Made by a program: the position numbers and the translations under genes. Shown here one piece after another: positions 1-10,286 of a stretch of 10,286 bases of DNA (position 1 is the stretch's first letter; every line of letters starts with the position of its first letter). Source of the stretch: Halorutilales archaeon Cl-col2-1 (lineage in GTDB: Archaea; Halobacteriota; Halobacteria; Halobacteriales; Afararchaeaceae); contig CP169076.1 in the NCBI GenBank assembly GCA_041891055.1, forward strand, positions 1-10,286, written 5' to 3'. The notes under the pieces were generated by a model. It worked only from the letters and a program-made list of their open reading frames with translations. It had not been told where the DNA came from and ran no database searches.

Positions 1-3000
1 TCGAGGATTCTCTTTTGTGGGGTTATAATTAGCTCTTCGTCCTCACCGGCACTTTCAGCCTCAGTCCACCCCACACCTGGTTGCACTCTCGTTATTTTGG
101 TGTTGTCGAGGATTTTGACTTGTAGGTCGCCTTCGTACTCGTCAGTTTTGGCGTTTCGTATCCTGTAAGTGGTTTCTGGGAGAAGTGTGGGGGCGTCTTC
201 ACTAAACCGTATGAAGTCCACCATACCCGTCATATCCTTGAGGATACCGTACTGTTCGACCTTGTCGCTGTTGTGGTCTTCTTCTTCCCACATCTCAGCG
301 GTGAGAGTCACAGTTTCACCTGGGTTCAGAGTGTTTATCGGTCGTGGGTCGTTGTCACTGCTTTCGTCTTTGTCTTCTTCGTCTTCATCTCCTTCGTCGA
401 ACATACTCAGGGAAACGTCGACCTTCTCCCCCGCTTCGTCGAGGTATATCCCCACCGACCGGTTTATGGGAGACGTGGGGATACCTACGCGTTCGACGTA
501 AGTGTCGTCTCTGTCTTTCGAGTCACGGAAGCGGTCTAAATATTCGTTTTTCTCAAAGAGGGCGTTGTTCAAGTTGTGATCCCTGTGGTACTTACGCACC
601 TTAGAGTAACACCGCGAAAGGTTGAAGCGTAGCACTTCTCCCCCGCGTAACAGGGTGTAATGCTCGTCTTCTTCGAGGTACCCTGACATAGACGCGTGAC
701 CCAACATCTCGACGAAGTCGTCTAAGTGACTACGACGCCGTCCCGCTTTTAGGTCTCCTATGTTACCCGCGACGTGAACTAACGCGTCTTCTACGTCCTC
801 ATCTACGTTTCCGGCGTCTATCGGGACGTCGACGTCGTGCTCTTCCGCGAATTCCTCGTAGATACGTAGACCGAAGAGGGAGACCTGTAAAGCCGTTCTC
901 TCGGAGTTCCCGATACCCCCGATACCGTGTTTTTCGAGAAGATCCTCGACCTCGGGACGACACTCACGCCAAATCTCTTTGAGTTCGTCGTCATCTTGTG
1001 CCAGTATCCAGCGGTAGTAAGCCACGCCGTGACCTTCTAGATCCTTTGGGCTAGGGTACTCTATGTCTCCGTCTTCGTTCTCAAAACTCTCCCCGACGAG
1101 TTCGGCGTACCTCTTCTGCGTCTCTGTTCCATCTTCCGAAACATCGGGACGGAAGTGGGTTAGAAGGCTACGCCTTACCAGGGACGGGTCTTGAAACTGC
1201 TGTTCACCGGTCACAACCACGGGGGCTTTAATCTTGTAGGTCTCCGTGCTTCCGTCAGGGCGTCCCTTAGCCTCTGAGCCTCCCCTGGTCGTCTTTCGAC
1301 AGTAGTCGTGAAAAGTGTCTATACGGCGGTCGGAGATGTCGGCGGGGCGATACTCGTCGAACCATACAGGGATAGAGTTCGACGACGAAAAGCTTGTGAG
1401 CATACCATGGGGCGTCATCTCGGAGCTTAGCGGGTCGTCGTCCATACCGAAGGCACGCCAAAGGACTTGTAGCGTGCTCGTCTTACCACTCCCAGTATCG
1501 CCGGTTATAGAGAGAAGCGGAAACTCTCCGACCCAGTCTAGGAACTTCGGGTTGAGAGCCGATGCGTAGAACCACCCGATTACACTTAAGAACCTCTCGG
1601 AGTCACGGATCTGGGGTAAGAGGCGCAGGACGGCTTCGAGGTCGTCCTCGTCGACGTCAGTCTCAGGTGTGATACCACACCGTCGTTCTATGTCGGTCTC
1701 ACGTTCGAGAAACACCGTCTCGGGGGTATCAGACCACCCGTCTGACGAAATTGTCCCCTGGGGGGTAACGAACTCGTCGCCGTGTAACCCCATAAGGTGT
1801 GTCCCTTTCTGAGTCTCTTCCTTTTGGTAGGCTAGAATCTCCTTGAGGTCGTTTCTGTCCTCCTTATCGCCGTCCCAGCGGGTCGAGAATTCACGAACGA
1901 TCTTGTCCTCGAACTTGTCGCTTCGGTTGAAGACCTTTGGTCTCACGTCGACGTTGTAGGGTTCTCCATTCTTCGGCTTAACTCGGAGCTTGAAGTGGTG
2001 TGTATCCCTTTCTGCGTGCTTAACTTTAGCCCGTGTCTCTATCAAAAAGTTAGACAACTCTCTAAACCGTCGCTCGTCGTCTTCATTTGTGCACCAGTAT
2101 CCGTAACCCCCGTCACGGGCGTCGAGTCCTACCCAGTCAGGCGTCTCTTGGTCGGGTTCATCGTCGGGGTCGAAGGCGTCACCGGCTACCTTTCCAGCTT
2201 CACCGTCGTGTCTCTCGGGGTCGTAGTAGGTGTTCACTTCCTTAAGTGCGTTGTCTATGGTGAGCTCACCGTAGGTTTGTGACCCTCTGTCCTCGTCCCA
2301 CTTGTCGCGCATTAACCCGCTTTCTCGGAATAGCTCGTCGATTTTATGACGGTCTCCCCCTGTCCAAAAAGCCAAGTGACACGCTAAAGCCATGTCAGCC
2401 TCGGACTGTGACGGATACCCCGAGGTCGAGCCGTTCCACAAAGAAGCGAACTCGTCGCCGTTCTCGGCGTTCTTAGCCTTCTCTATTATCTCTTCGTCGT
2501 CGAGGTCAAGGTCGACGGGGTCGGAGTCGGAAGTCTCGGTATCCTCGTCAATCTCTTCGTCGTCGACGACGTAGTCGTTATGTACGTCCTTGAGGGCGTC
2601 TTGACGGCGTTCTACGGGCTTTGTGTCGCCCCCAAAGCCTGTCTCACCTGTTATGGTGAAGTAGCGCGCCTTACCGTACATCTCGACGTCGCCCTTACGG
2701 TTTCCGCCCTCGGGTATAATACCGTGCACCAGGACGTGTAGCCCCGTTCCCGAGACAGAGACCTCGGTGTAAGTGTCGAGACGGTCTACTATATCACGCG
2801 CCCAGTCATCTATGTCACCCGTCTCGGGATCACGGCAATGGTCGAGGTCGACACCGCATATTGTGTCCGATTCGGAGAAGACGAATCCGACGCCGTCGAC
2901 GTCGCTGTTAGACTCGTAATATAACTGCGCCGTGTCAAAGCTAGCCCACGTGTCGGGGTCTGTGGTACTCGCAAAACCCTGTCCCTTACGCGGGTTCACT

Positions 3001-3260
3001 GGTATCTTTGTTTTTTCTCCGTCTCTCTCTTCTTCGCGCCAACATAACCACTGGTCTCTATCTTTGAGTTCGTCGGGTATGCTCTCGAAGTTCGGAGTGA
3101 TCGGGGTGTCTTCGTCGGGATATTCGGTGTCGAGGCGGGGGGTTCCACCGTCAGTATCGGTATCCTCGGGGTGGTTCACGACGTTGTCGTTTACTTTAGC
3201 CTCCCCAGGCATATCTTCGAGAAGATCCTCGGGTTTCTGTGGCTCTTCGGGGTTACTCAC
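1..3260 (-). CDS. Multidomain replication protein, N-terminal 1086 codons: AEP primase-polymerase (NrS-1-like) + helical bundle + P-loop helicase + RPA-like OB fold; continues across the window junction
   Basis: Hand translation from GTG 3260 (alternative ATG 3212) shows no stop down to base 1. Motifs: IPDELKDRDQWLCW, GVGFVF, GVDLDHC (DxD at 2849-2841), YTEVSVSGTGLH, VEMY..ARYFTITG; SQSEADMALACHLAFWTGGD..IDELFRESGLMRDKWD (helical bundle); Walker A GDTGSGKT (1502-1479), Walker B VWFDEY (1367-1350), VVVTGE, LVRRS; OB-like GILKDMTGMVDF..YRIRNAKTDEYEGDLQVKI (~345-85). Absent from the ORF track because it runs off the edge. Confidence 0.93.
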   Translation of the reverse strand, partial: MSNPEEPQKPEDLLEDMPGEAKVNDNVVNHPEDTDTDGGTPRLDTEYPDEDTPITPNFESIPDELKDRDQWLCWREEERDGEKTKIPVNPRKGQGFASTTDPDTWASFDTAQLYYESNSDVDGVGFVFSESDTICGVDLDHCRDPETGDIDDWARDIVDRLDTYTEVSVSGTGLHVLVHGIIPEGGNRKGDVEMYGKARYFTITGETGFGGDTKPVERRQDALKDVHNDYVVDDEEIDEDTETSDSDPVDLDLDDEEIIEKAKNAENGDEFASLWNGSTSGYPSQSEADMALACHLAFWTGGDRHKIDELFRESGLMRDKWDEDRGSQTYGELTIDNALKEVNTYYDPERHDGEAGKVAGDAFDPDDEPDQETPDWVGLDARDGGYGYWCTNEDDERRFRELSNFLIETRAKVKHAERDTHHFKLRVKPKNGEPYNVDVRPKVFNRSDKFEDKIVREFSTRWDGDKEDRNDLKEILAYQKEETQKGTHLMGLHGDEFVTPQGTISSDGWSDTPETVFLERETDIERRCGITPETDVDEDDLEAVLRLLPQIRDSERFLSVIGWFYASALNPKFLDWVGEFPLLSITGDTGSGKTSTLQVLWRAFGMDDDPLSSEMTPHGMLTSFSSSNSIPVWFDEYRPADISDRRIDTFHDYCRKTTRGGSEAKGRPDGSTETYKIKAPVVVTGEQQFQDPSLVRRSLLTHFRPDVSEDGTETQKRYAELVGESFENEDGDIEYPSPKDLEGHGVAYYRWILAQDDDELKEIWRECRPEVEDLLEKHGIGGIGNSERTALQVSLFGLRIYEEFAEEHDVDVPIDAGNVDEDVEDALVHVAGNIGDLKAGRRRSHLDDFVEMLGHASMSGYLEEDEHYTLLRGGEVLRFNLSRCYSKVRKYHRDHNLNNALFEKNEYLDRFRDSKDRDDTYVERVGIPTSPINRSVGIYLDEAGEKVDVSLSMFDEGDEDEEDKDESSDNDPRPINTLNPGETVTLTAEMWEEEDHNSDKVEQYGILKDMTGMVDFIRFSEDAPTLLPETTYRIRNAKTDEYEGDLQVKILDNTKITRVQPGVGWTEAESAGEDEELIITPQKRIL

Positions 3261-3618
3261 TGAGAATCCCCCCTCTCGACACGATCTTTGCGTGGTGTTT
3301 CGACTTCCTCCCTTTTGTAATAGATAGGTTATTCACGGGGATGAAACCCGTAACACCGACTATCTCGGCTTCGGAGTCGTAGTCATCGAAGTGTACCCGC
3401 TTAACCCTCTTGTCGAGGTTGAGATACACGTACTGGGGGGCAAAATCCTTGTGCCTTAGTAGTCGGCGAGCCACCCCAAGTTCAAAGCTCTCGACGCGGG
3501 CGGTGTCCTTGTCTCCAGGGAACCTAATCAGGGTCTCACGTTCTGCGAGCTTGTACGGGGAACTCGTCGCTACCTTTTCAGAAACTTCGTTGTCAAACGT
3601 ACTACTCACATTACTCAC
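3253..3618 (-). CDS. Hypothetical protein (121 aa) translationally coupled to the replication gene
   Basis: Its stop overlaps the rep GTG start (GTGAGTAA). G-rich SD-like GGGTGTGG upstream. Globular, protein-like composition (ETLIRF...RRLLRH...IVGVTGFIP). Confidence 0.8.
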   Translation of the reverse strand: MSNVSSTFDNEVSEKVATSSPYKLAERETLIRFPGDKDTARVESFELGVARRLLRHKDFAPQYVYLNLDKRVKRVHFDDYDSEAEIVGVTGFIPVNNLSITKGRKSKHHAKIVSRGGILSE

Positions 3619-3743
3619 GGAACCACACCCATTATTAGGTAAACCTCGACGTAGCCCGTACTGGGGCTAGCCTCACTGTGTAGGTCTGTATCCGTAGGTC
3701 TTTGCCTCTTAGCCGTGGATCTAGTGCACGTTCTGGTGCTCAT
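3615..3743 (-). CDS. Possible 42-aa small ORF in the rep operon leader
   Basis: ATG 3743 to TGA 3617-3615. GTGA overlap with the downstream gene and ATGA overlap with the upstream ORF. No recognisable motif. Confidence 0.35.
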   Translation of the reverse strand: MSTRTCTRSTAKRQRPTDTDLHSEASPSTGYVEVYLIMGVVP

Positions 3744-4015
3744 TTTAGGTCTCGTAGGTGAGACCCGACCCCCCGAAGAGGATATAACGCCAAGGCACGT
3801 CTCAGAACACAGTAGGGAGCTTGACCAAGGGCAAACTTCAATACGGTCAATTCCTTAGGACTATACAGGCTCACACCGAAAGGGACGTTAGATCCCGGAG
3901 GGTGTGGGTCTGTTTGAGTCATACCCGTAAGGGATTGCATACAACACAAATTGTGTTCTGAGACCTGTTGGCGCAGGTCTCTTAACTTTTTAACCGAACT
4001 ATTCACCTTAGTCAC
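3740..4015 (-). CDS. Possible hypothetical protein (91 aa), first ORF of the rep operon
   Basis: GTG start ~27 nt downstream of a BRE/TATA-like element, with an ATGA overlap at its end. The basic composition is atypical for this element, so it may be untranslated leader. Confidence 0.3.
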   Translation of the reverse strand: MTKVNSSVKKLRDLRQQVSEHNLCCMQSLTGMTQTDPHPPGSNVPFGVSLYSPKELTVLKFALGQAPYCVLRRALALYPLRGVGSHLRDLK

Positions 4016-4039
4016 GTCTATCTCTTGTTTAGGTATGCA

Positions 4040-4056
4040 CCATAATAAAGTTTCTC
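4040..4056 (-). promoter_or_regulatory. Putative archaeal BRE-TATA promoter for the rep operon
   Basis: Minus strand GAGAAACTTTATTATGG: purine-rich BRE followed by TTTATTAT, upstream of the coupled ORF chain. Confidence 0.45.
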
Positions 4057-4118
4057 ACGCTCCTCTACGCCGTATGTGGGTTTTTGACTTGAGAATTTAA
4101 AGTATACACACCAAACAG

Positions 4119-4182
4119 AACCGCAGTACAGCGCGGTTTCATTCACCGTCTCATAGCTATGAAACGGTCGCGTACTGCGGTT
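4119..4182. repeat. Nested inverted repeat / long hairpin
   Basis: AACCGCAGTAC (4119-4129) / GTACTGCGGTT (4172-4182) enclose ACCGTCTCATAGCTATGAAACGGT (4145-4168, palindrome with one mismatch). Confidence 0.85.
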
Positions 4183-4585
4183 TTAAACGCTAAGAGCTAA
4201 TACACACACGTATTTTTCATGGACGCCAAACCCCGAGGATATGAACGCCAAGGGCGAATAATTTTACATACAGACACATATCACGTTTTGTGAGGTACGT
4301 CTTATGCCCTTGTGCGACCTAACACGGGCGGGTGTGTTATTTTAGTTGACCTATCTAAACATACATACGATCCAACTCTCCGTAAACGCGATTTATGATG
4401 CCAAGACCCACTACTATTAGACAAACATAAAGGAATATGCCTAAGTGCAACATAGATTGCACTGTTACCAGCACAGATGGGGATAAAGTTACAGTAAACT
4501 AACCTAACGTAAAGCAACCGTCGAATAACTATTCGAAGGCAGAGAAGAAGTTATGAAGAATCTAATAACATTACACTACCCTAAC

Positions 4586-4963
4586 CTAATCCCTCTCGCC
4601 CCGATCTTCGTCGTCGTCGCGTGACTCACCGAGGAGCCACACCTTAGCCCTACCCAGGACGCCTCGGCGTTGTTCTTCGAGCACTTGAGCTAGAGCTTTG
4701 TCTTGGCGTTCCTGGTGCTCGGCAAGCTCGTCGACCTTCGCCTCGACGTTACCACGAGCTTGTAACTGGTTCCTAAGTTCGTCTCGTCGGTTCTCAAGCC
4801 GTTCACACTCCTTCCGAAGATCTTCATACTCTTGGCGTAGGTCTTCATACTCGTCGAGTATTTGGCGTAAGGCTTCGGAACGAGACGACGCGTCCCCCTC
4901 GTCTTGGCGTACGTCGAGGCGTTCGAGTTGATCCTCGGTGAGACTGACGGATACTTTCTTCAT
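4586..4963 (-). CDS. CopG/ribbon-helix-helix DNA-binding protein with coiled coil (125 aa)
   Basis: MKKVSVSLTEDQLERLD...SRSEALRQIL is an RHH pattern. Heptads EYEDLRQEYEDLRKE follow, ending in amphipathic RGVLGRAKVWLLG. Confidence 0.88.
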   Translation of the reverse strand: MKKVSVSLTEDQLERLDVRQDEGDASSRSEALRQILDEYEDLRQEYEDLRKECERLENRRDELRNQLQARGNVEAKVDELAEHQERQDKALAQVLEEQRRGVLGRAKVWLLGESRDDDEDRGERD

Positions 4964-5306
4964 ACTGGTTCGTATTTTCTTCCTACTCCTTCAATCTACG
5001 TCAGACGTTCTAATGCTAGATTTTCCCGCCACCGAGGTCGAGATGAGGAGGTTGAAAGCGGGAGGAGCCCGAGCCATGTTGAAGAAAGCCCAGCCACCTA
5101 GAGAGAATTATAACGACCTTGTTACTCTACATTTTGCCGAAGTGTTATGAAAAATCTCTTATCAATAAGATAAATCAAACTACATTTACATCTATTCAAA
5201 GAAGAAAAGAATTCTTACAAACTTCTTCGTGGTTTATTAAATTTTTATCAAGACCTTAACGACGGGGGTTGTAACACCTTTCCGTCAATATGGAGTAACA
5301 CGGCTG

Positions 5307-5993
5307 TTATTCTCCTAAGATCCTCCTTACAGCCGAATCTGTTCTTATCGTAGACCACGCTTCTTTCTTAATCTCAAGCCGATAAGAACCCTTTAGCTCT
5401 CTTTTCTTCTCGGAGTATCCCGCCGTCTTACCTCTGTCTACTTTCTGAATCAATCCCTCCCCGAGATCCTCGGCGTACTCACGTATTCGCTTGTGGGTCT
5501 GACGGTACTCCTTAGCTTTCTCAAGAGGTATTCCTTCTTTGTGGTGTAGGAACTTAGCTAGCTCTTTAGGATTAAATACGTATTTCTCTCCTACGTCTTT
5601 ACCGAACCTCGGAGCCTCTTTCCAGAGGTTAACCGCTCTTCTCTTATTCTCAGAAAGCTCTTGGCGTAGGTTCTCGTCCCGACTGTACTTCTCTATGTCA
5701 TAGGGAACATCTTCCGTCTTATCGGTGCTAACGCCGTTCTCTTGTATCTCAGAAACCTCTTCTCGTAGGTGTTCGACGAGATCTAAGCTCTTCTCTATCT
5801 CTGTCTCGACGTTTTTCTCGACGGATTCGACGTCAGCCTTGACCTCCTCGACCTCGTTCTTGAGCTGTGAATATCCTTCTTCTAACTGAGAGAGTCTCTC
5901 TTCTATGCCTGAGACCTTTTCCTCTACCTTCTCGTCAATAAGAGCCTCTATGTCCTTCTCAGACGTCGGAGAAGACTGGTTAGCGACACTCAT
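5307..5993 (-). CDS. Coiled-coil protein with basic, possibly DNA-binding C-terminal domain (~228 aa)
   Basis: Strong SD AGGAGGTG just upstream of ATG 5993 (track uses GTG 5999). Long acidic heptad region followed by a K/R-rich globular region (NKRRAVNLW...). Confidence 0.85.
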   Translation of the reverse strand: MSVANQSSPTSEKDIEALIDEKVEEKVSGIEERLSQLEEGYSQLKNEVEEVKADVESVEKNVETEIEKSLDLVEHLREEVSEIQENGVSTDKTEDVPYDIEKYSRDENLRQELSENKRRAVNLWKEAPRFGKDVGEKYVFNPKELAKFLHHKEGIPLEKAKEYRQTHKRIREYAEDLGEGLIQKVDRGKTAGYSEKKRELKGSYRLEIKKEAWSTIRTDSAVRRILGE

Positions 5994-6088
5994 ACCCACA
6001 CCTCCTTGGGGTCAGAAGAGTTTCCTTCGTCTGCTATGCGTCTGATCTTGCCGATAGATTTATCTATCGGTGTGTGTGATTTGAACAT
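5990..6088 (-). CDS. Possible 32-aa small ORF coupled to the coiled-coil gene
   Basis: MFKSHTPIDKSIGKIRRIADEGNSSDPKEVWV*. ATGA overlap with the ATG at 5993; its 3' end carries the SD. Confidence 0.4.
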   Translation of the reverse strand: MFKSHTPIDKSIGKIRRIADEGNSSDPKEVWV

Positions 6089-6240
6089 GTATAATCACGG
6101 TTCACGGTTCACGATTCTCTTCCGAGGTCGCTGGTGACGTCCTCGGTCACTACATTATTTTTACTGACTCGTAGCTTGCTCTGTGTCTATGATTGATGAC
6201 ATACTACTTAAGTTTTTGTCAGACTATTTGTCTCGACCTA

Positions 6241-6346
6241 CGTGACTCCGAAGAGCTACACCTTCACTCGACTCAGTACGCCTCGACGTTGTTCTCGGAG
6301 TACTTGAGCTAGGGCTTCGTCTTGCCACGTTCCTGGTGCCCGACAG
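6241..6346 (-). pseudogene. Decayed partial copy of the 3' end of the RHH/coiled-coil gene (4620-4724)
   Basis: Aligns by eye to 4620-4724. Reads HQER/QDEALAQVLREQRRGVLSRVKV*LFG versus HQERQDKALAQVLEEQRRGVLGRAKVWLLG, with a 2-nt insertion, a small deletion and TGG>TAG (6258-6256). Confidence 0.85.
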
Positions 6347-6394
6347 AAGAACGAGAAGAGCGAGGTGAAGCGGGAATACGCTGATATACACACA

Positions 6395-6532
6395 TAACCG
6401 AAAAACCGAACCCCGCGGTTAGGGGGGTATACCCCCCTGACTAATATATGTTATAACGCGCGCATATATGCACACGCGCGCGAGCGCGCCCGCTTGACCC
6501 TTTCCCGCCCCTCGGTTAGATTAGTTAGTCAG
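6395..6532. other. Palindrome-rich intergenic region, candidate replication origin
   Basis: Perfect 18-bp palindrome AGGGGGGTATACCCCCCT (6421-6438), a short AT tract, a 27-nt alternating purine-pyrimidine run (6456-6482), and IRs TAACCGA/TCGGTTA and CTGACTAA/TTAGTCAG. Origin function is inferred. Confidence 0.4.
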
Positions 6533-6602
6533 ATGGAAACGGCAGACAGAGGAGGGTTAGAACACCCCACGTTTCCATGAAGAAACGCAGTACTCAATAG
6601 GA

Positions 6603-6851
6603 TTAGAACAAGCCTGAGTCACTTGAGGTCTCGGTACGGTCTGGGGTGTCCCGCTCGTCGTCGAGGTCGTCGAGTTTCCGCTCAAGCTCGTCTAGTCTAT
6701 TGTGAAGGTCGTCAAAAGACTCAGAGTACAACCCCCAGCGGATTGTCCGCCGGAGAATATCCGCTTCGGATATGTCTCTCTCTTCGGCGCGGGTTTCTAT
6801 CTCTTCGGCTACATCTTGAGGTAGACGTACACTCTTCTGTGTTTTCCCCAT
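6603..6851 (-). CDS. CopG/ribbon-helix-helix transcriptional regulator (82 aa)
   Basis: QKSVRLPQDVAEEIETRAEERDISEADILRRTI is a classic RHH, followed by a short coiled coil. TATA ~25-30 nt upstream (leaderless). Confidence 0.88.
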   Translation of the reverse strand: MGKTQKSVRLPQDVAEEIETRAEERDISEADILRRTIRWGLYSESFDDLHNRLDELERKLDDLDDERDTPDRTETSSDSGLF

Positions 6852-6886
6852 GTTTCCATATGGAGACTACCGACATATATATTTCA
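6852..6886. promoter_or_regulatory. Divergent promoter with near-palindromic operator
   Basis: GTTTCCATATGGAGAC (6852-6867) abuts the RHH start. ATATATAT (6875-6882) is about equidistant from ATG 6851 (-) and ATG 6907 (+). Confidence 0.55.
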
Positions 6887-6906
6887 TTATGACACATATG
6901 TACCAC

Positions 6907-7071
6907 ATGACACTGGGTCAACAAATGATGAATAAGACAGGCAGAAAGACATTTGTGTGTCCCTTGTGTGAGGACACGGATTTGAACAACAGAACTGGGG
7001 AAAGGGAGAAGATGTACTGCAATAAGTGCCAAAAAGAAGTAGTCCCTGACGTGCACGAGAACACCGGATGA
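6907..7071 (+). CDS. Small zinc-finger protein (CPLC...CNKC); stop codon lies at the IS end
   Basis: Two CxxC pairs. Start ATG 6907 chosen from TATA spacing (6925/6928 are alternatives). TGA 7069-7071 coincides with the IS terminal TGACATCC. Confidence 0.7.
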   Translation: MTLGQQMMNKTGRKTFVCPLCEDTDLNNRTGEREKMYCNKCQKEVVPDVHENTG

Positions 7072-7240
7072 CATCCTCCCCGTCGTGAACGACGGGGTTT
7101 CCTCTCCGACGTGGGAGTCTCAGCAGGTCTAAGATTCCCCGGAGGCAACATTCCCGTCACGGTGGACGGTACTCGGGTCTGTGCGCTGTTCTTTGGGACT
7201 TTCCCTCGCGGGAGAGCGTGGTGACTCCGACCAGTCGTAA
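7050..7240 (-). ncRNA. Putative TnpB omegaRNA/reRNA (haloarchaeal sotRNA-like) scaffold plus flanking guide
   Basis: Position overlapping the tnpB 3' end and right-end hairpin is where omegaRNAs are encoded. Predicted guide begins near (T)CCGGTGTTCTCGTGCACG. Expression not shown. Confidence 0.5.
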
Positions 7241-7317
7241 CGTGGCGGTTTCTTACCGGAGCTTACGCGATTCACTCCCGCCGTGAACGGCGGGATTCTC
7301 TCGCTGTATCAAGATAG
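7069..7317 (-). mobile_element. Non-autonomous, internally deleted IS200/IS605 (IS1341-type) element
   Basis: Two related subterminal hairpins with TGAA loops (+ strand): CCCCGTCG/CGACGGGG (7078-7097) and TCCCGCCG/CGGCGGGA (7276-7295). The minus strand ends GGAGGATGTCA, as I recall for haloarchaeal IS605-family right ends. No TIR/TSD. Left boundary uncertain by ~10 nt. Confidence 0.85.
7129..7239 (-). pseudogene. tnpB: tnpB C-terminal remnant
   Basis: YDWSESPRSPARESPKEQRTDPSTVHRDGNVASGES* resembles the C-terminal tail of haloarchaeal IS1341-type TnpB (recognised from memory). No RuvC or Zn-ribbon region remains. Confidence 0.75.
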
Positions 7318-7323
7318 GAGGGG

Positions 7324-7407
7324 GGGGGGTATAGAGTTACACATACGTGTAATATTACACGTATAATATACGTATAGAGTAGACTGACCCACAACTATAT
7401 AGCCCCC
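7324..7407. repeat. Composite palindromic site downstream of the recombinase
   Basis: Perfect 22-bp palindrome ATACGTGTAATATTACACGTAT (7343-7364) and TATACGTATA (7367-7376), flanked by a 13/15 inverted repeat GGGGGGTATAGAGTT (7324-7338) / AACTATATAGCCCCC (7393-7407). Confidence 0.8.
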
Positions 7408-7422
7408 TGGGTATGAGACAGG

Positions 7423-8022
7423 CTACTCGGGGACGAGCTCTTCACCGATAGTCGACGGCGTCGGCTTAGCTAAGTATGGTTCTATACTCTGGTACGACGA
7501 CCAGCCGCCTATCTCCATCATTACTCTAACACTAACATCCTCCTCAACGAGGTAGTGTGTTGCCCAGCTACGGCGTAGATCGTGACTCGACACGTGGCTC
7601 CAACGCTCAGACTTCCCGGCGTCGACGAGACTCCGTGCGGCTTCACGTACCCATCGACGGATAGAGTCTACGGAGACGTCGACGTATGGCTCAGACGGTG
7701 CTATGTCTCTCTCTTTAGCGTAGTTCTCGAGCTCACGTTTCACACCTCGGGGTACGTATGCGTCTCTCGTGGCTTTCTCACCGCCCTTCGTGTTCTTACC
7801 TCGTACCTCAAGCTCCCAGTACTCTCCGTCGCCGTTGTACTGTAGACCCCGAGGTCGAGCCGTAGGTACGCCGCTGGCTCGAAGCCCGATTTTGCCCATT
7901 AAGAGTATAGCTATCCTACGCTCCCAGTCTTCTTGGCGTGCCTGTCGAGATAGGAGGTCGACCTCGTCGGGATAGGATAACCAGCATTTCACCTCGTCGC
8001 CTGAGTCGTCTATACGCACCAT
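7423..8022 (-). CDS. Tyrosine recombinase/integrase, catalytic-domain-only (SNJ2-like family), 199 aa
   Basis: GLR, GK, SSHDLRRSWAT, GGW and EPY give the R-K-H-R-W-Y catalytic set. Too short to hold a core-binding domain. Confidence 0.93.
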   Translation of the reverse strand: MVRIDDSGDEVKCWLSYPDEVDLLSRQARQEDWERRIAILLMGKIGLRASGVPTARPRGLQYNGDGEYWELEVRGKNTKGGEKATRDAYVPRGVKRELENYAKERDIAPSEPYVDVSVDSIRRWVREAARSLVDAGKSERWSHVSSHDLRRSWATHYLVEEDVSVRVMMEIGGWSSYQSIEPYLAKPTPSTIGEELVPE

Positions 8023-8497
8023 ACACGGATGTTTAACTTAGCGTGTGAAAAGAGTGTTGGAGGAGGTGTATCCCGGGGTGAGATGTGGTATATATGGGTT
8101 GACGTCGGGTGTTCGTACACGGTTAATTATACAATACGTGTAACAACTAACCAACAGATCTAGAGATATATTAGAAATGTTGGTTAGCTCTGAGTGAGAC
8201 TCCAACCCCGAGGTCGACCACAAGGGGTATCTCACCTCGGGGGTCGGGAAAGAAGGTGCTCACGAGAGGGTGTGTTGGTGTTTGTACTCGGGTCTTTTAG
8301 TTGTTTTTCTGTCTGCGAAAAACAAACTACAAAAGTTACCAAAATCCTACGCTTTCTGGTGTTTATAATAATGTATAATATGGACAACACTACTGCGGGA
8401 TACATACTATCTTAATCGGTGAATATTACTGTAACAATCTATACCGAGAAGGCATTACAGCATCGGGGTAAGGATGCAATTTCCTTTGTGTAGGGGG

Positions 8498-8526
8498 TGT
8501 AAAGAAGTAACCCTTTTACATTTAAT
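8498..8526 (+). promoter_or_regulatory. Inverted repeat operator next to the TATA of the HTH gene
   Basis: TGTAAA-N11-TTTACA (8498-8520) immediately before TTTAAT (8521-8526), ~25 nt upstream of ATG 8550. Confidence 0.45.
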
Positions 8527-8549
8527 CGCTGTACTAAGGTAATGTGGAT

Positions 8550-8930
8550 ATGGAACCGTTAAAGTCCCTGAACGAGGAAGAACGACAACGTCTCGAGGGT
8601 GTTTTTGAGCGGGCTCTTGAGGAGCTTGAGGTCGGCGAGGTCGAGACAGCCCTGGATAGACAGATGAGTCTTAAGCAGTACTACAACAATCACAAGTCTA
8701 ACCGAGGGAAAGTAGAACCATTTCTCGAGGAGCTTCGTGAGATCACAGAGAGATACGGAAAAGACAATCCCCGGCGCGAGATGGATATTATCTCACTCTT
8801 CCTTAAGACGGAGATGAGTCGCCCAACATACTATAAACTGCGGGATCGTGCCGAGGAGGAGTTGGGCGTCGATCTCGAGGAGTACCGGAAAGAGGTTCCC
8901 ACTAACGACTGGGCGACCTGGCAGGGGTAG
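8550..8930 (+). CDS. Hypothetical alpha-helical protein with probable C-terminal HTH (~126 aa)
   Basis: Acidic and helical. MSRPTYYKLR resembles an HTH recognition helix (SRxTxY). Start ATG 8550 (track GTG 8544). Confidence 0.75.
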   Translation: MEPLKSLNEEERQRLEGVFERALEELEVGEVETALDRQMSLKQYYNNHKSNRGKVEPFLEELREITERYGKDNPRREMDIISLFLKTEMSRPTYYKLRDRAEEELGVDLEEYRKEVPTNDWATWQG

Positions 8931-9076
8931 TTCTTTCTCACTTACACCTCGTGTCTCGTTTTGAGTGTATTCAAGCTGTGGGACAGGGGGGTGTCCAAAA
9001 TATCCCCTCCAATGTGCGCACGCGCGACCCCCCGCCCCCTCCCCGACGAGAGTTACCACAGTTGGGGTCTAAAATG

Positions 9077-9377
9077 ATCTTACACCATGCCTTACAGTGA
9101 ATCTTACATATCTTACATTCATCTTACATTCGAGAATCCCACGCCTTCTGGTGGATCTTACACATCTTACACTATATACGATTAATGGTAGATAGAATCA
9201 GACAAATCTGTGAGCTTCAATATCTCGTTTTCTCTCGTTCACTCTCACTCTACCCTGACCCCCTAGAGATAGCGTAAGACGTGTAACAATCACTATACAG
9301 CATGGGATTTTGTAGTGTAAGATGGGTGTAAGATCGGTGTAAGGTCGCGTAAGATCGGCGTAACCTCGGCGTAAGAT
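9077..9377. repeat. Bipartite inverted array of ATCTTACA / TGTAAGAT octamers
   Basis: ATCTTACA-type copies at 9077, 9089, 9101, 9110, 9121, 9155, 9164. Reverse-complement-type copies at 9273, 9282 (degenerate), 9316, 9327, 9338, 9348, 9359, 9370. Confidence 0.92.
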
Positions 9378-9421
9378 TGACTATCTTCCGTATATTACGT
9401 TTGGGTGTAGGACAAACAGTA

Positions 9422-9721
9422 ATGGTAGAGGTACTGCTAAACGACGAAGACAAAAAACCAGATGGTACGAAGATCGAGGCGATAGGTTACGAGGTTCCGA
9501 GGTCTGACCAGTTCCCCGAGGGGGTCAAGTACAGTTTCGTGTACTTTCACCCTGACGACGACGTGAACATACTACGGTACGACAACGCACACGAGCACGC
9601 CGGAAGCAAACACCACAAGCACGTAAGGGGTGAAACACACCCCGTGGACTACGAGGGGAGTGTAGAACAACAGTACGAGAAGTTCCTAAACGAGGTCGAG
9701 GAAATTTATGAGCATGAATAA
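9422..9721 (+). CDS. DUF6516 (TumE-like) family putative toxin (99 aa)
   Basis: VPRSDQFPEGVKYSF...ILRYDNAH...HHKH signature. ATG 9422 lies ~25-30 nt after TATATTA (9391-9397). Confidence 0.85.
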   Translation: MVEVLLNDEDKKPDGTKIEAIGYEVPRSDQFPEGVKYSFVYFHPDDDVNILRYDNAHEHAGSKHHKHVRGETHPVDYEGSVEQQYEKFLNEVEEIYEHE

Positions 9722-10133
9722 AGACAGGCACGAAGGTATAGAGATACCCGAGATACCCGAGGGTACGGATCTGATAATCACGTCAGAGACCTGGGAAGAG
9801 TTCAAAGAGGGTTCGGTAGATAGAGCTAGGTCGTTAGACGAGGGAGAACAGCCACCCCACGTCGTCAACATAGAAGACCCAAGCGAGTTCCGTAAGCTAC
9901 TCACACCCAAACGTCTCGAACTCATAGAGACCGTCGTAGAAGACCCTCCCGAGAGCATACGTGATCTAGCCGACAAGCTCGACAGAGGTCTACGTGAGGT
10001 ACATGAGGATCTTGAACTCCTCGAAGAGTACGGTATAGTCAAGTTCGAGGAGGAGGGACGCGCTAAGAGACCCTACATACCATACGAGACTGTCAGGATA
10101 AGCGGGGAGATCGCCAAGAAGCCCCCAGCGTGA
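9708..10133 (+). CDS. HVO_A0114-like winged-HTH protein, putative antitoxin/regulator
   Basis: LLTPKRLELIE...PESIRDLADKLDRGLREVHEDLELLEEYGIV.FEEEGRAKRPYIPYE. Overlaps the upstream DUF6516 gene, the usual pairing. Confidence 0.87.
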   Translation: MSMNKDRHEGIEIPEIPEGTDLIITSETWEEFKEGSVDRARSLDEGEQPPHVVNIEDPSEFRKLLTPKRLELIETVVEDPPESIRDLADKLDRGLREVHEDLELLEEYGIVKFEEEGRAKRPYIPYETVRISGEIAKKPPA

Positions 10134-10141
10134 ACCTGTAT

Positions 10142-10286
10142 CTATACCACCCTTATCCCGTCTGAGGTCTCCATTATCACCCCGTTTGTGAGCAAGTTCT
10201 CGACGGCTGTCTCGGCTTGTTCGTCCTCTACGTCGACTTTTTCGACAAGCTCGTCTTGAGTACACCCCTCGTTTTCTCTTAACTCT
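10142..10286 (-). CDS. C-terminal winged-helix segment, most likely the end of the replication protein (joins in frame to base 1)
   Basis: Frame from 10285 reads ELRENEGCTQDELVEKVDVEDEQAETAVENLLTNGVIMETSDGIRVV* with TAG at 10144-10142. The leftover GA (bases 2-1) plus A (10286) forms GAA, giving continuous ...TPQKRILEELRENEG..., a winged-helix pattern. Confidence 0.88.
   Translation of the reverse strand, partial: ELRENEGCTQDELVEKVDVEDEQAETAVENLLTNGVIMETSDGIRVV

Follow-up and report, generated by a model that had tools for sequence, protein, structure and literature searches.

A probable complete 10,286-bp circular plasmid of Halorutilales archaeon Cl-col2-1

In the Sulfolobales, plasmids of the pRN1 type are small and cryptic, and carry a CopG-type regulator alongside ORF904, a protein in which a primase-polymerase, a helicase and a winged helix are combined. 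In the available part of one source, pRN1 is cited for its primase-polymerase domain (PMC10599561). According to the available part of a preprint, spindle-virus genes occur in small circular elements from hypersaline environments alongside primase-helicases of plasmid type or rolling-circle Reps, and these elements have been proposed to be satellites (bioRxiv 10.1101/2025.02.15.638363). Among named records, the nearest full-length relative of the replication protein (Rep) described here is found on NC_019975.1, a circular plasmid of 12,939 bp from Natronococcus occultus SP4.

The genome of Halorutilales archaeon Cl-col2-1 consists of four contigs, of 1.94 Mb (C1), 116 kb (C2), 10,286 bp (C3) and 3.3 kb (C4). 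We analyzed the whole of C3, a stretch of 10,286 nucleotides referred to here as the window, and conclude, with a probability of about 0.85, that it is a complete, self-replicating circular haloarchaeal plasmid. Its 1134-residue Rep is composed of an NrS-1-type archaeo-eukaryotic primase-polymerase, a helix-bundle domain, a probable P-loop helicase, an RPA-like OB fold and a C-terminal winged helix.

Evidence for circular closure of the replicon

The Rep gene is interrupted by the two ends of the contig, one of which lies in a repeat:

1..3260, minus strand: Rep gene, first part (open reading frame; codons 1-1086 and two bases of codon 1087)
10140..10286, minus strand: Rep gene, second part (from translation; the third base of codon 1087, then codons 1088-1134 and the stop TAG at 10140-10142)
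10143..10286, unstranded: repeat R, shared with C2 positions 107148-107291 (143 of 144 bases identical)

As the first-pass annotation had read, the ends of the window join in phase, with a minus-strand frame leaving at base 1 and re-entering at base 10286. The minus strand of bases 1-8 reads ATCCTCGA and bases 10277-10286 read AGAGTTAAGA. The 3'-open minus-strand frame 3260..3 comprises 1086 codons and leaves over the bases GA, which base 10286 turns into GAA, codon 1087; after the join a further 47 codons lead to the stop TAG at 10140-10142, giving a product of 1134 aa. As an in-phase join is expected by chance in 1 of 3 cases, the frame by itself is weak evidence, and at the 10286 end a second minus frame, 9990..10286, is open as well, making two open frames out of three. 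Together with the near-identity of the last 144 bases to C2, this is what speaks for the ends lying apart in the cell, either joined in phase by chance or with those 144 bases actually belonging to C2. The evidence for closure other than the frame is, however, far beyond chance. In G001, another genome from this genus, a contig of 3676 bp (C78) continues ungapped across the join, in agreement with the earlier claim of a whole small haloarchaeal plasmid or element: its positions 1-303 correspond to window 9985-10286 at 96.0% identity and its positions 304-3676 to window 1-3364 at 91.3%, so that 303|304 coincides exactly with 10286|1, with zero gap and zero overlap. Colinearity of homologues across 10286/1, which had been named as a check on closure, was observed for homologues at 32-54% identity, including P0002 and P0003, which are 51-52% identical across the last 287 residues of Rep and colinear through the join. 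Residue 1087 is spanned by five tblastn alignments on three distinct contigs (G001:C78, Halorutilus L007/L010 and metagenome L028), and likewise by the metagenome protein P0002, while ten more alignments, from ten other loci, end at residues 1064-1079 and are uninformative on the join either way. The coherence of the winged helix across the join also bore out the first reading, the joined protein scoring 23.3 bits with the Pfam family HTH_24 at residues 1082-1124 (cut-off 21.9) and the 47-residue end piece alone 16.0 bits. An AF2 model placed three helices and a hairpin at residues 1081-1133 (pLDDT 66-75), the helix at 1081-1091 crossing the join; this was the best-scoring region of a model that was otherwise poor.

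A public protein collection contains a 1134-aa protein that is identical to the joined product and encoded on a contig of 10286 bases. Metagenome contigs from two runs of a single study (X1 and X2) cover window positions 1-1262 and extend past the join into 10286 by 30 and 36 letters, wholly within the repeat; these contigs represent a relative about 94.5% identical to the window. We found no terminal overlap at the ends of C3, and a search of sequencing runs found none from the source strain, the best run containing 0.14 of the sampled words. With the identical join present in an independent assembly and in homologues at 32-93% protein identity, and with unrelated sequence upstream of the C2 repeat copy, we consider it extremely improbable that the ends are not neighbours.

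Contig C3 ends where it does because the exact part of repeat R, 132 bases from 10155 to 10286 that are shared with C2, starts at that edge, and the assembler would have cut the circle open there, within codon 1087 of the Rep gene. C1 and C2 likewise terminate in a shared repeat, indicating that the contigs of this assembly break at repeats. Repeat R also brings in a reading in which the element closes on paper but, in the sequenced strain, is present in C2 as a cointegrate, in whole or in part, with two repeat copies at its flanks as a result of homologous recombination at this 144-bp sequence. Across a repeat that is identical at 143 of 144 positions, has 132 exact bases and starts precisely at the contig end, a free circle with an empty site and a cointegrate are indistinguishable in the assembly graph, and an identical contig set is expected if the plasmid lay in C2 between two repeat copies. 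The C2 repeat is adjoined by other plasmid-like genes (a ribbon-helix-helix/coiled-coil gene and TnpB), and the broken Rep of a relative lies within a 53-kb contig, which shows that such plasmids do enter larger replicons. In contrast, C2 was assembled contiguously through its own repeat copy, and in the sister genome G001 two separate contigs carry the two arrangements, C97 the empty megaplasmid site and C78 the plasmid type, each contiguously. The repeat copy on C2 is an old fossil: its flanks are shared between the two genomes, and its orthologue in G001:C97 is a frameshifted remnant. It is therefore not a fresh integration scar. We regard a cointegrate as improbable, and a free circular plasmid as the preferred reading.

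Replication protein, other genes and candidate sites

The genes for replication, recombination, toxin-antitoxin function and regulation that the first-pass annotation had proposed were all recovered by profile matches. The first part of Rep holds the primase-polymerase, helix-bundle domain, probable P-loop helicase and OB fold, and the second part the winged helix. The N-terminal domain matched the NrS-1 primase in the PDB (E 4.4e-19), residues 285-348 matched the Pfam helix-bundle domain (HBD) of NrS-1-type primase-polymerases (E 1.2e-30), and the protein matched the DNA primase family phrog_1829 (E 4.8e-93). The OB fold matched the PDB OB protein 2KBN (E 1.9e-10), and residues 912-1061 the NCBIfam replication factor A model (E 1.7e-13). 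Helicase family matches were weak (DUF927, E 0.2; AAA_18, E 0.009), and the residues of Walker A (G-x-x-G-x-G-K-T) and of Walker B (D-E) do not vary among the four sequences compared. No other copy of Rep was found in the genome. We infer that the winged helix would bind an origin, which the helicase would then open and at which the primase-polymerase would then start DNA synthesis. The remaining features of the window are as follows:

3253..3618, minus strand: open reading frame of 121 aa, overlapping the start of Rep by 8 bases
4078..4548, unstranded: non-coding block shared with C4 (85-88% identity)
4586..4963, minus strand: CopG-type (ribbon-helix-helix) protein, 125 aa, ending in a coiled-coil tail (Pfam RHH_1)
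5307..5999, minus strand: coiled-coil protein of 230 aa (weak coiled-coil matches only, in Pfam, NCBIfam and PHROGs)
6241..6345, unstranded: decayed duplicate of part of the ribbon-helix-helix gene (4620-4724; 80% identity)
6603..6851, minus strand: second ribbon-helix-helix protein, 82 aa (Pfam RHH_1, phrog_24852)
6850..7071, plus strand: zinc-ribbon protein of 73 aa (C4 copy 92% identical in DNA and 77% in protein)
7068..7322, unstranded: miniature element with IS200/IS605-type ends (29 plasmid records have matching IS200/IS605 and TnpB flanks)
7340..7370, unstranded: palindromic site beside the recombinase gene, inverted repeat I23 (partly conserved in C4)
7423..8022, minus strand: 199-aa tyrosine recombinase consisting of the catalytic domain alone (Pfam Phage_integrase)
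8147..8191, unstranded: small palindromic repeat I24 (copies at ten places on C2 and one on C1)
8544..8930, plus strand: open reading frame of 128 aa (from the ORF list)
9077..9377, unstranded: iteron-like cluster with all ten exact GTAAGAT copies of the window
9377..9721, plus strand: TumE-family toxin, 114 aa as listed (Pfam TumE)
9708..10133, plus strand: HVO_A0114 (TumA-type) winged-helix antitoxin, 141 aa (Pfam)

The TumE (E 3.9e-11; 43.2 bits, cut-off 23.4) and HVO_A0114 (E 5.7e-32; 109.8 bits, cut-off 27.6) genes are adjacent with a 14-base overlap, the true TumE start may lie further inside the listed frame, and the HVO_A0114 gene converges on the Rep stop. An orphan HVO_A0114 copy on the chromosome (C1) is 98.6% identical. 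The first ribbon-helix-helix protein matched RHH_1 above the gathering cut-off (E 9e-7; 29.1 bits against 20.5), whereas the second scored slightly under it (E 8e-4; 19.7 bits) and matched phrog_24852 at E 2.7e-8. Judged by family membership, the toxin-antitoxin pair would kill plasmid-losing cells and the ribbon-helix-helix proteins would control copy number or transcription. The 121-aa and 128-aa frames gave no family match in Pfam, NCBIfam or PHROGs.

The recombinase matched Phage_integrase at 38.2 bits (cut-off 27.1), and its catalytic R, H-x-x-R and Y align with those of XerA (4A8E), with W replacing the second His. The N-terminal core-binding domain of Xer and phage integrases is absent, the alignment beginning at XerA residue 121. 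The conserved recombinase cassette (7434-8142) is also present in G001:C74 and in C2, where the recombinase is 95% identical in amino acids. By its family, this short enzyme would resolve multimers or drive exchange with other replicons. The palindrome at 7340..7370, one arm of which recurs inverted at 8128-8143, is a candidate recombination site.

GTAAGAT occurs ten times against 1.33 expected, a count reached in 0 of 200 shuffles, and all copies fall within 301 bp: six in one orientation (9077-9170) and four in the opposite one (9317-9377) with a period of 11, a short-repeat cluster at helical spacing as in an iteron origin. This cluster is the best origin candidate, and may alternatively be an operator; further candidates are the block with the hairpin (4078-4548) and an AT-rich spacer between divergent genes (8023-8543).

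Plasmid, satellite or paired elements

The first-pass annotation had left open a plasmid or an excised integrative element, of which the plasmid is the better fit. This is favoured because a search of the window for tRNA or att-like matches to the chromosome gave none, and because the short recombinase type resides on 57 haloarchaeal plasmid records by tblastn, with 39 of the 57 matches covering at least 80% of the 199 residues. The best relatives of the window are all haloarchaeal. Autonomy of the replicon is backed by the single-copy Rep, by a GC content of 50.6% versus 55.4% for the chromosome, and by the relative of Rep on the circular Natronococcus plasmid.

We also considered whether the window is a virus satellite or defective provirus that is packaged and spread by a helper virus. 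The primase of the tailed Halorubrum virus CGphi46 shares 39% identity with Rep across 68% of the length of Rep, small circular hypersaline elements have been proposed as satellites in the available part of the preprint (bioRxiv 10.1101/2025.02.15.638363), and the co-resident C4 codes for a two-helix membrane protein of 76 aa that weakly matches a virion protein, and shares three blocks with the window: the non-coding hairpin block of about 460 bp, the zinc-ribbon gene and the palindromic site beside the recombinase gene. However, just as the first reading had held that capsid and conjugation genes are absent, the 11 ORFs had no match to capsid, packaging, ATPase, conjugation, portal, terminase or spike families in Pfam, NCBIfam and PHROGs; no credible small two-helix membrane ORF was found in the window, and no relative in the viral contig collection searched. 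A satellite or defective provirus is accordingly judged very unlikely, and a plasmid remains preferred.

The block at 4078..4548 contains a hairpin with 24-nt arms (4119-4142 and 4159-4182), lies within the lowest-GC stretch of the window and is, on sequence grounds, a candidate cis element. The miniature element at 7068..7322 is inserted in the window, the homologous C4 site being empty in the alignment. C4 carries a rolling-circle-type Rep, versus the primase-polymerase Rep of the window, and its small two-helix membrane protein resembles a capsid protein of spindle viruses. It is conceivable, though doubtful, that the plasmid and C4 form a linked pair in which the plasmid is a capsid-less rider on a satellite system, the shared hairpin block serving both in cis as a signal for partition or for being packaged by a helper virus; if so, both circles could be spread or kept together.

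Comparison with known systems

Under the plasmid reading, C3 is a finished replicon whose largest gene encodes one protein of 1134 residues, rather than a truncated gene and an orphan winged-helix ORF. A haloarchaeal lineage of small (about 2 Mb) genomes thereby gains a complete small natural replicon, one that could provide the backbone of a shuttle vector. With primase-polymerase, probable helicase, RPA-like OB fold and origin-type winged helix in a single chain, Rep would be a compact subject for the study of primer-independent plasmid replication at high salt. Beyond these points, the element is an ordinary cryptic plasmid of a known kind.

The small circular Natronococcus plasmid NC_019975.1 has as its largest gene a 1124-aa 'DUF927 domain-containing protein', 38.9% identical over 83% of Rep and with the same C-terminal tail, and it carries CopG-type and winged-helix small genes; its record lists neither an integrase nor a TumE/TumA pair, and as Rep is the only match the comparison is limited to Rep. 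The CGphi46 primase (NC_021537.1, 1124 aa; 38.9% identity over 68%) has the domain order and length class of Rep, but belongs to a 39.8-kb tailed-virus genome, unlike the window with its lack of structural-protein family matches. As described in the available part of the preprint, the spindle-virus-related circular elements and PL6-family plasmids are, like the window, small haloarchaeal circles with plasmid-type primase-helicase or rolling-circle Reps; a search of the window for the capsid protein or AAA+ ATPase that defines them found neither, and C4 matches that description better. The primase-polymerase of the deep-sea phage NrS-1 (PDB 6A9W, 6K9A and 7RR3) resembles Rep in the N-terminal domain (E 4e-19) and the helix bundle (E 1e-30). 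These chains of 288-320 residues align only to profile positions 5-235 of 999, in the N-terminal part of Rep, and are therefore uninformative on the helicase, OB fold and winged helix. By description, the window would resemble pRN1 in pairing one large primase-polymerase/helicase/winged-helix protein with a CopG-type regulator, and differs from it in that its Rep has an NrS-1-type primase-polymerase with a helix-bundle domain, together with an RPA-like OB fold.

A replication protein frame at the contig ends

The genome of the source strain comprises four contigs, and the window is all of the third.

Contigs of the source genome
C1, 1,935,030 bp, GC 55.4%
C2, 116,000 bp, GC 49.6%
C3 (the window), 10,286 bp, GC 50.6%
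C4, 3,311 bp, GC 51.8%

Terminal overlap was absent from all four contigs, as well as from 80 metagenome loci. The first-pass annotation had joined the minus-strand frame in phase across 10286/1, and its reading of the bases proved exact: a minus-strand ORF starting at 3260 is open down to base 3 (1086 codons), the two leftover bases at the contig start combine with base 10286 to form a GAA codon, and past the join the frame adds another 47 codons before it meets a TAG at 10140-10142, yielding a product of 1134 residues. As a second minus-strand frame is likewise open at the 10286 end, the in-phase argument is weak on its own. The joined product, hereafter Rep, consists of an N-terminal NrS-1-type primase-polymerase (PDB, E 4e-19; PHROG DNA primase, E 5e-93), a helix-bundle domain (E 1e-30), a P-loop with invariant Walker residues (4/4 sequences), an OB fold like that of RPA (NCBIfam replication factor A, E 1.7e-13; PDB 2KBN, E 1.9e-10) and a winged helix. 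The Rep start is overlapped by a 121-codon ORF, and no second Rep copy was found in the genome.

Relatives that run through the join

A search of 41 related genomes revealed that the sole other genome of the same genus among them, G001, carries a full-length, stop-free joined Rep with 93% identity over residues 2-1134. At the DNA level, bases 1-303 of its contig C78 (3676 bp) correspond to window 9985-10286 and bases 304-3676 to window 1-3364, the two matches abutting with neither gap nor overlap. A protein query made of the 287 residues that precede the join found four proteins among 2707 candidates. One of these is a 1134-residue protein identical to joined Rep and encoded on a 10,286-base contig, and thus the public annotation already treats this record as circular. 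Of the remaining three, P0002 (a metagenome protein) and P0003 share the same tail at 51-52% identity and are colinear through the join, while P0004 stops short of it. In a tblastn search of all fetched foreign loci with P0001, 14 alignments reached residue 1000; five of these, drawn from three separate contigs, extend across residue 1087, the join codon, and the others end at residues 1064-1079.

The domain at the join is consistent with these alignments. Residues 1082-1124 of joined Rep match Pfam HTH_24 with 23.3 bits (cut-off 21.9), versus 16.0 bits for the end piece alone. An AlphaFold model of full-length Rep built from four sequences was poor overall (mean pLDDT 37) and usable for residues 1080-1134 only, its best part (pLDDT 66-75), where three helices and a hairpin are predicted; the first of these helices (1081-1091) straddles the join. 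The three metagenome runs compared with the window contain a relative and multi-copy pieces only. In two salt-lake runs from one study, contigs covering window 1-1262 with 69 differing letters continue into 10286 by 30 and 36 letters. Taken together, the abutting C78 matches, the homologues, the HTH_24 match, the model and the metagenome contigs confirm that the window ends are neighbours. Colinearity of homologues across the junction, which the first-pass annotation had named as a check, was observed for P0002, P0003 and the three contigs behind the five spanning tblastn alignments, one of which is C78, and its interpretation of the window as a whole small haloarchaeal plasmid or excised integrative element is supported, with the plasmid as the better fit. 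We conclude that the window is an ordinary cryptic plasmid.

The repeat at the contig end and the probable free form

The last 144 bases of the window (10143-10286) are identical to C2 107148-107291 at 143/144 positions, including 132 exact bases, and this identity starts exactly at the contig end, which accounts for the point where the assembly opened the circle. As the ends of C1 and C2 also share a repeat, with 811 exact bases within ~1.4 kb, the contigs of this assembly stop at repeats. Since C1 and C2 finish in this common sequence, neither of these two contig ends is a true molecule end; C1 and C2 may be joined or separately circular.

The C2 copy stands alone as an intact ORF of 52 codons, and the sequence upstream of it is unrelated. 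Its ortholog in G001 (C97:1633-1772) has the same flanks and two frameshifts, so that the 3' end of Rep, encoding the winged-helix part, occupies the same large-replicon site in two genomes of the genus. Because of this frameshifted ortholog in the same flanks, we regard the C2 copy as an old fossil of the Rep 3' end, evidence that a related plasmid integrated or recombined long ago, and reject it as a working gene or Rep decoy. The one real caveat to a free plasmid is that it could exist as a cointegrate in C2 with a copy of the repeat on either side, which would give an identical set of contigs. In G001, however, C78 carries the plasmid-type arrangement and C97 the empty site, each contiguously, and this favours a free circular form over a cointegrate. 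Among the sequencing runs searched for the source strain, none contained at least half of the sampled words (best share 0.14). In Halorutilus salinus F3-133, a 53-kb contig contains the Rep of a relative, split and inverted.

Gene content, candidate origins and known systems

Other genes of the window encode two ribbon-helix-helix proteins, a coiled-coil protein, a zinc-ribbon protein, TumE and the HVO_A0114 antitoxin (the latter two genes overlapping by 14 bases), and a tyrosine recombinase of 199 residues whose catalytic residues align with XerA and which has no N-terminal domain. Family matches recovered all the replication, recombinase, toxin-antitoxin and regulator genes that had been proposed from the sequence alone and, likewise as proposed, none of the 11 ORFs matched capsid or conjugation families, nor packaging or ATPase families, in Pfam, NCBIfam or PHROGs. 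Scans of the window for tRNAs and for Rfam families (E 0.1) gave no hits. An orphan copy of the plasmid antitoxin gene, with 98.6% DNA identity and no TumE partner, lies on the chromosome (C1:517177-517594), adjoining a gene for a large surface protein and a remnant of TnpB; it could neutralise the plasmid toxin and weaken addiction.

The recombinase gene and its promoter (window 7434-8142) form a discrete cassette that recurs in three distinct contexts, with copies at C2:27521-28229 and on G001 contigs C74, C68 and C109 (90-92% DNA identity, different flanks), and metagenome depth over it is 5-10x that of the Rep region. We set aside the idea that this cassette represents a novel type of minimal mobile element, as 57 plasmid records of haloarchaea carry matching recombinase genes (annotated 'site-specific integrase'); on 39 of these records a single locus spans 80% or more of the 199 residues.

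The best origin candidate is a cluster at 9077-9377 that holds all ten exact copies of GTAAGAT (1.33 expected; 0/200 shuffles reach ten), six in one orientation and four in the other, the second group with a period of 11 bases. Alternatively, the cluster could be an operator of the toxin-antitoxin genes starting at 9377. A 460-bp non-coding block at 4078-4548 with a 24-nt-arm hairpin, 85-88% identical to part of C4, is a candidate cis element, and the AT-rich divergent spacer 8023-8543 is a third origin candidate. A hydrophobic ORF of 39-44 codons is conserved inside the hairpin block (window 4355-4474, minus strand; C4 2420-2554, plus strand) and may represent either a gene or a side effect of the conservation of a non-coding element. 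The palindromic repeat at window 8147-8191 (45 bp, arms of 16 nt) has copies at ten places on C2 and one on C1, some of them as inverted pairs.

C4 encodes its own rolling-circle-like Rep (409 aa; weak Pfam match PF23343) and shares with the window the hairpin block, the zinc-ribbon gene and a palindromic block, the last two being adjacent in C4 and split in the window by one insertion:

7068-7322, miniature element of 255 bp made up of IS200/IS605-type ends and bearing two hairpins, separating the zinc-ribbon gene from the palindromic block

The homologous site in C4 is empty; in the window, the final codon and the stop of the zinc-ribbon gene come from the inserted element. Another product of C4 (1-3311) is a membrane protein of 76 aa with two helices, which weakly matches phrog_11172, a family of virion structural proteins (E 0.0024); a small two-helix membrane ORF is absent from the window. 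C4 resembles the small spindle-virus-related satellite circles of hypersaline lakes.

When the entire window was compared with plasmid records by megablast, only the 7067-7322 element matched, in 29 records, none of which covers 80% of the window. The viral contig collection gave 60 pattern matches, of which 0 were confirmed, the genome collection a single relative locus, and the metagenome collection 90 relatives, none close (best identity 38%). The window lacks the genes that define spindle-virus satellites (bioRxiv 10.1101/2025.02.15.638363) and pleolipoviruses (PMC10599561). Among named replicons, a circular plasmid from Natronococcus occultus SP4 (12,939 bp) is nearest, and its 1124-residue Rep is 39% identical and has the same tail; the primase of the tailed virus CGphi46 is equally close. 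By analogy of architecture, the element presumably works like plasmids of the pRN1 type.
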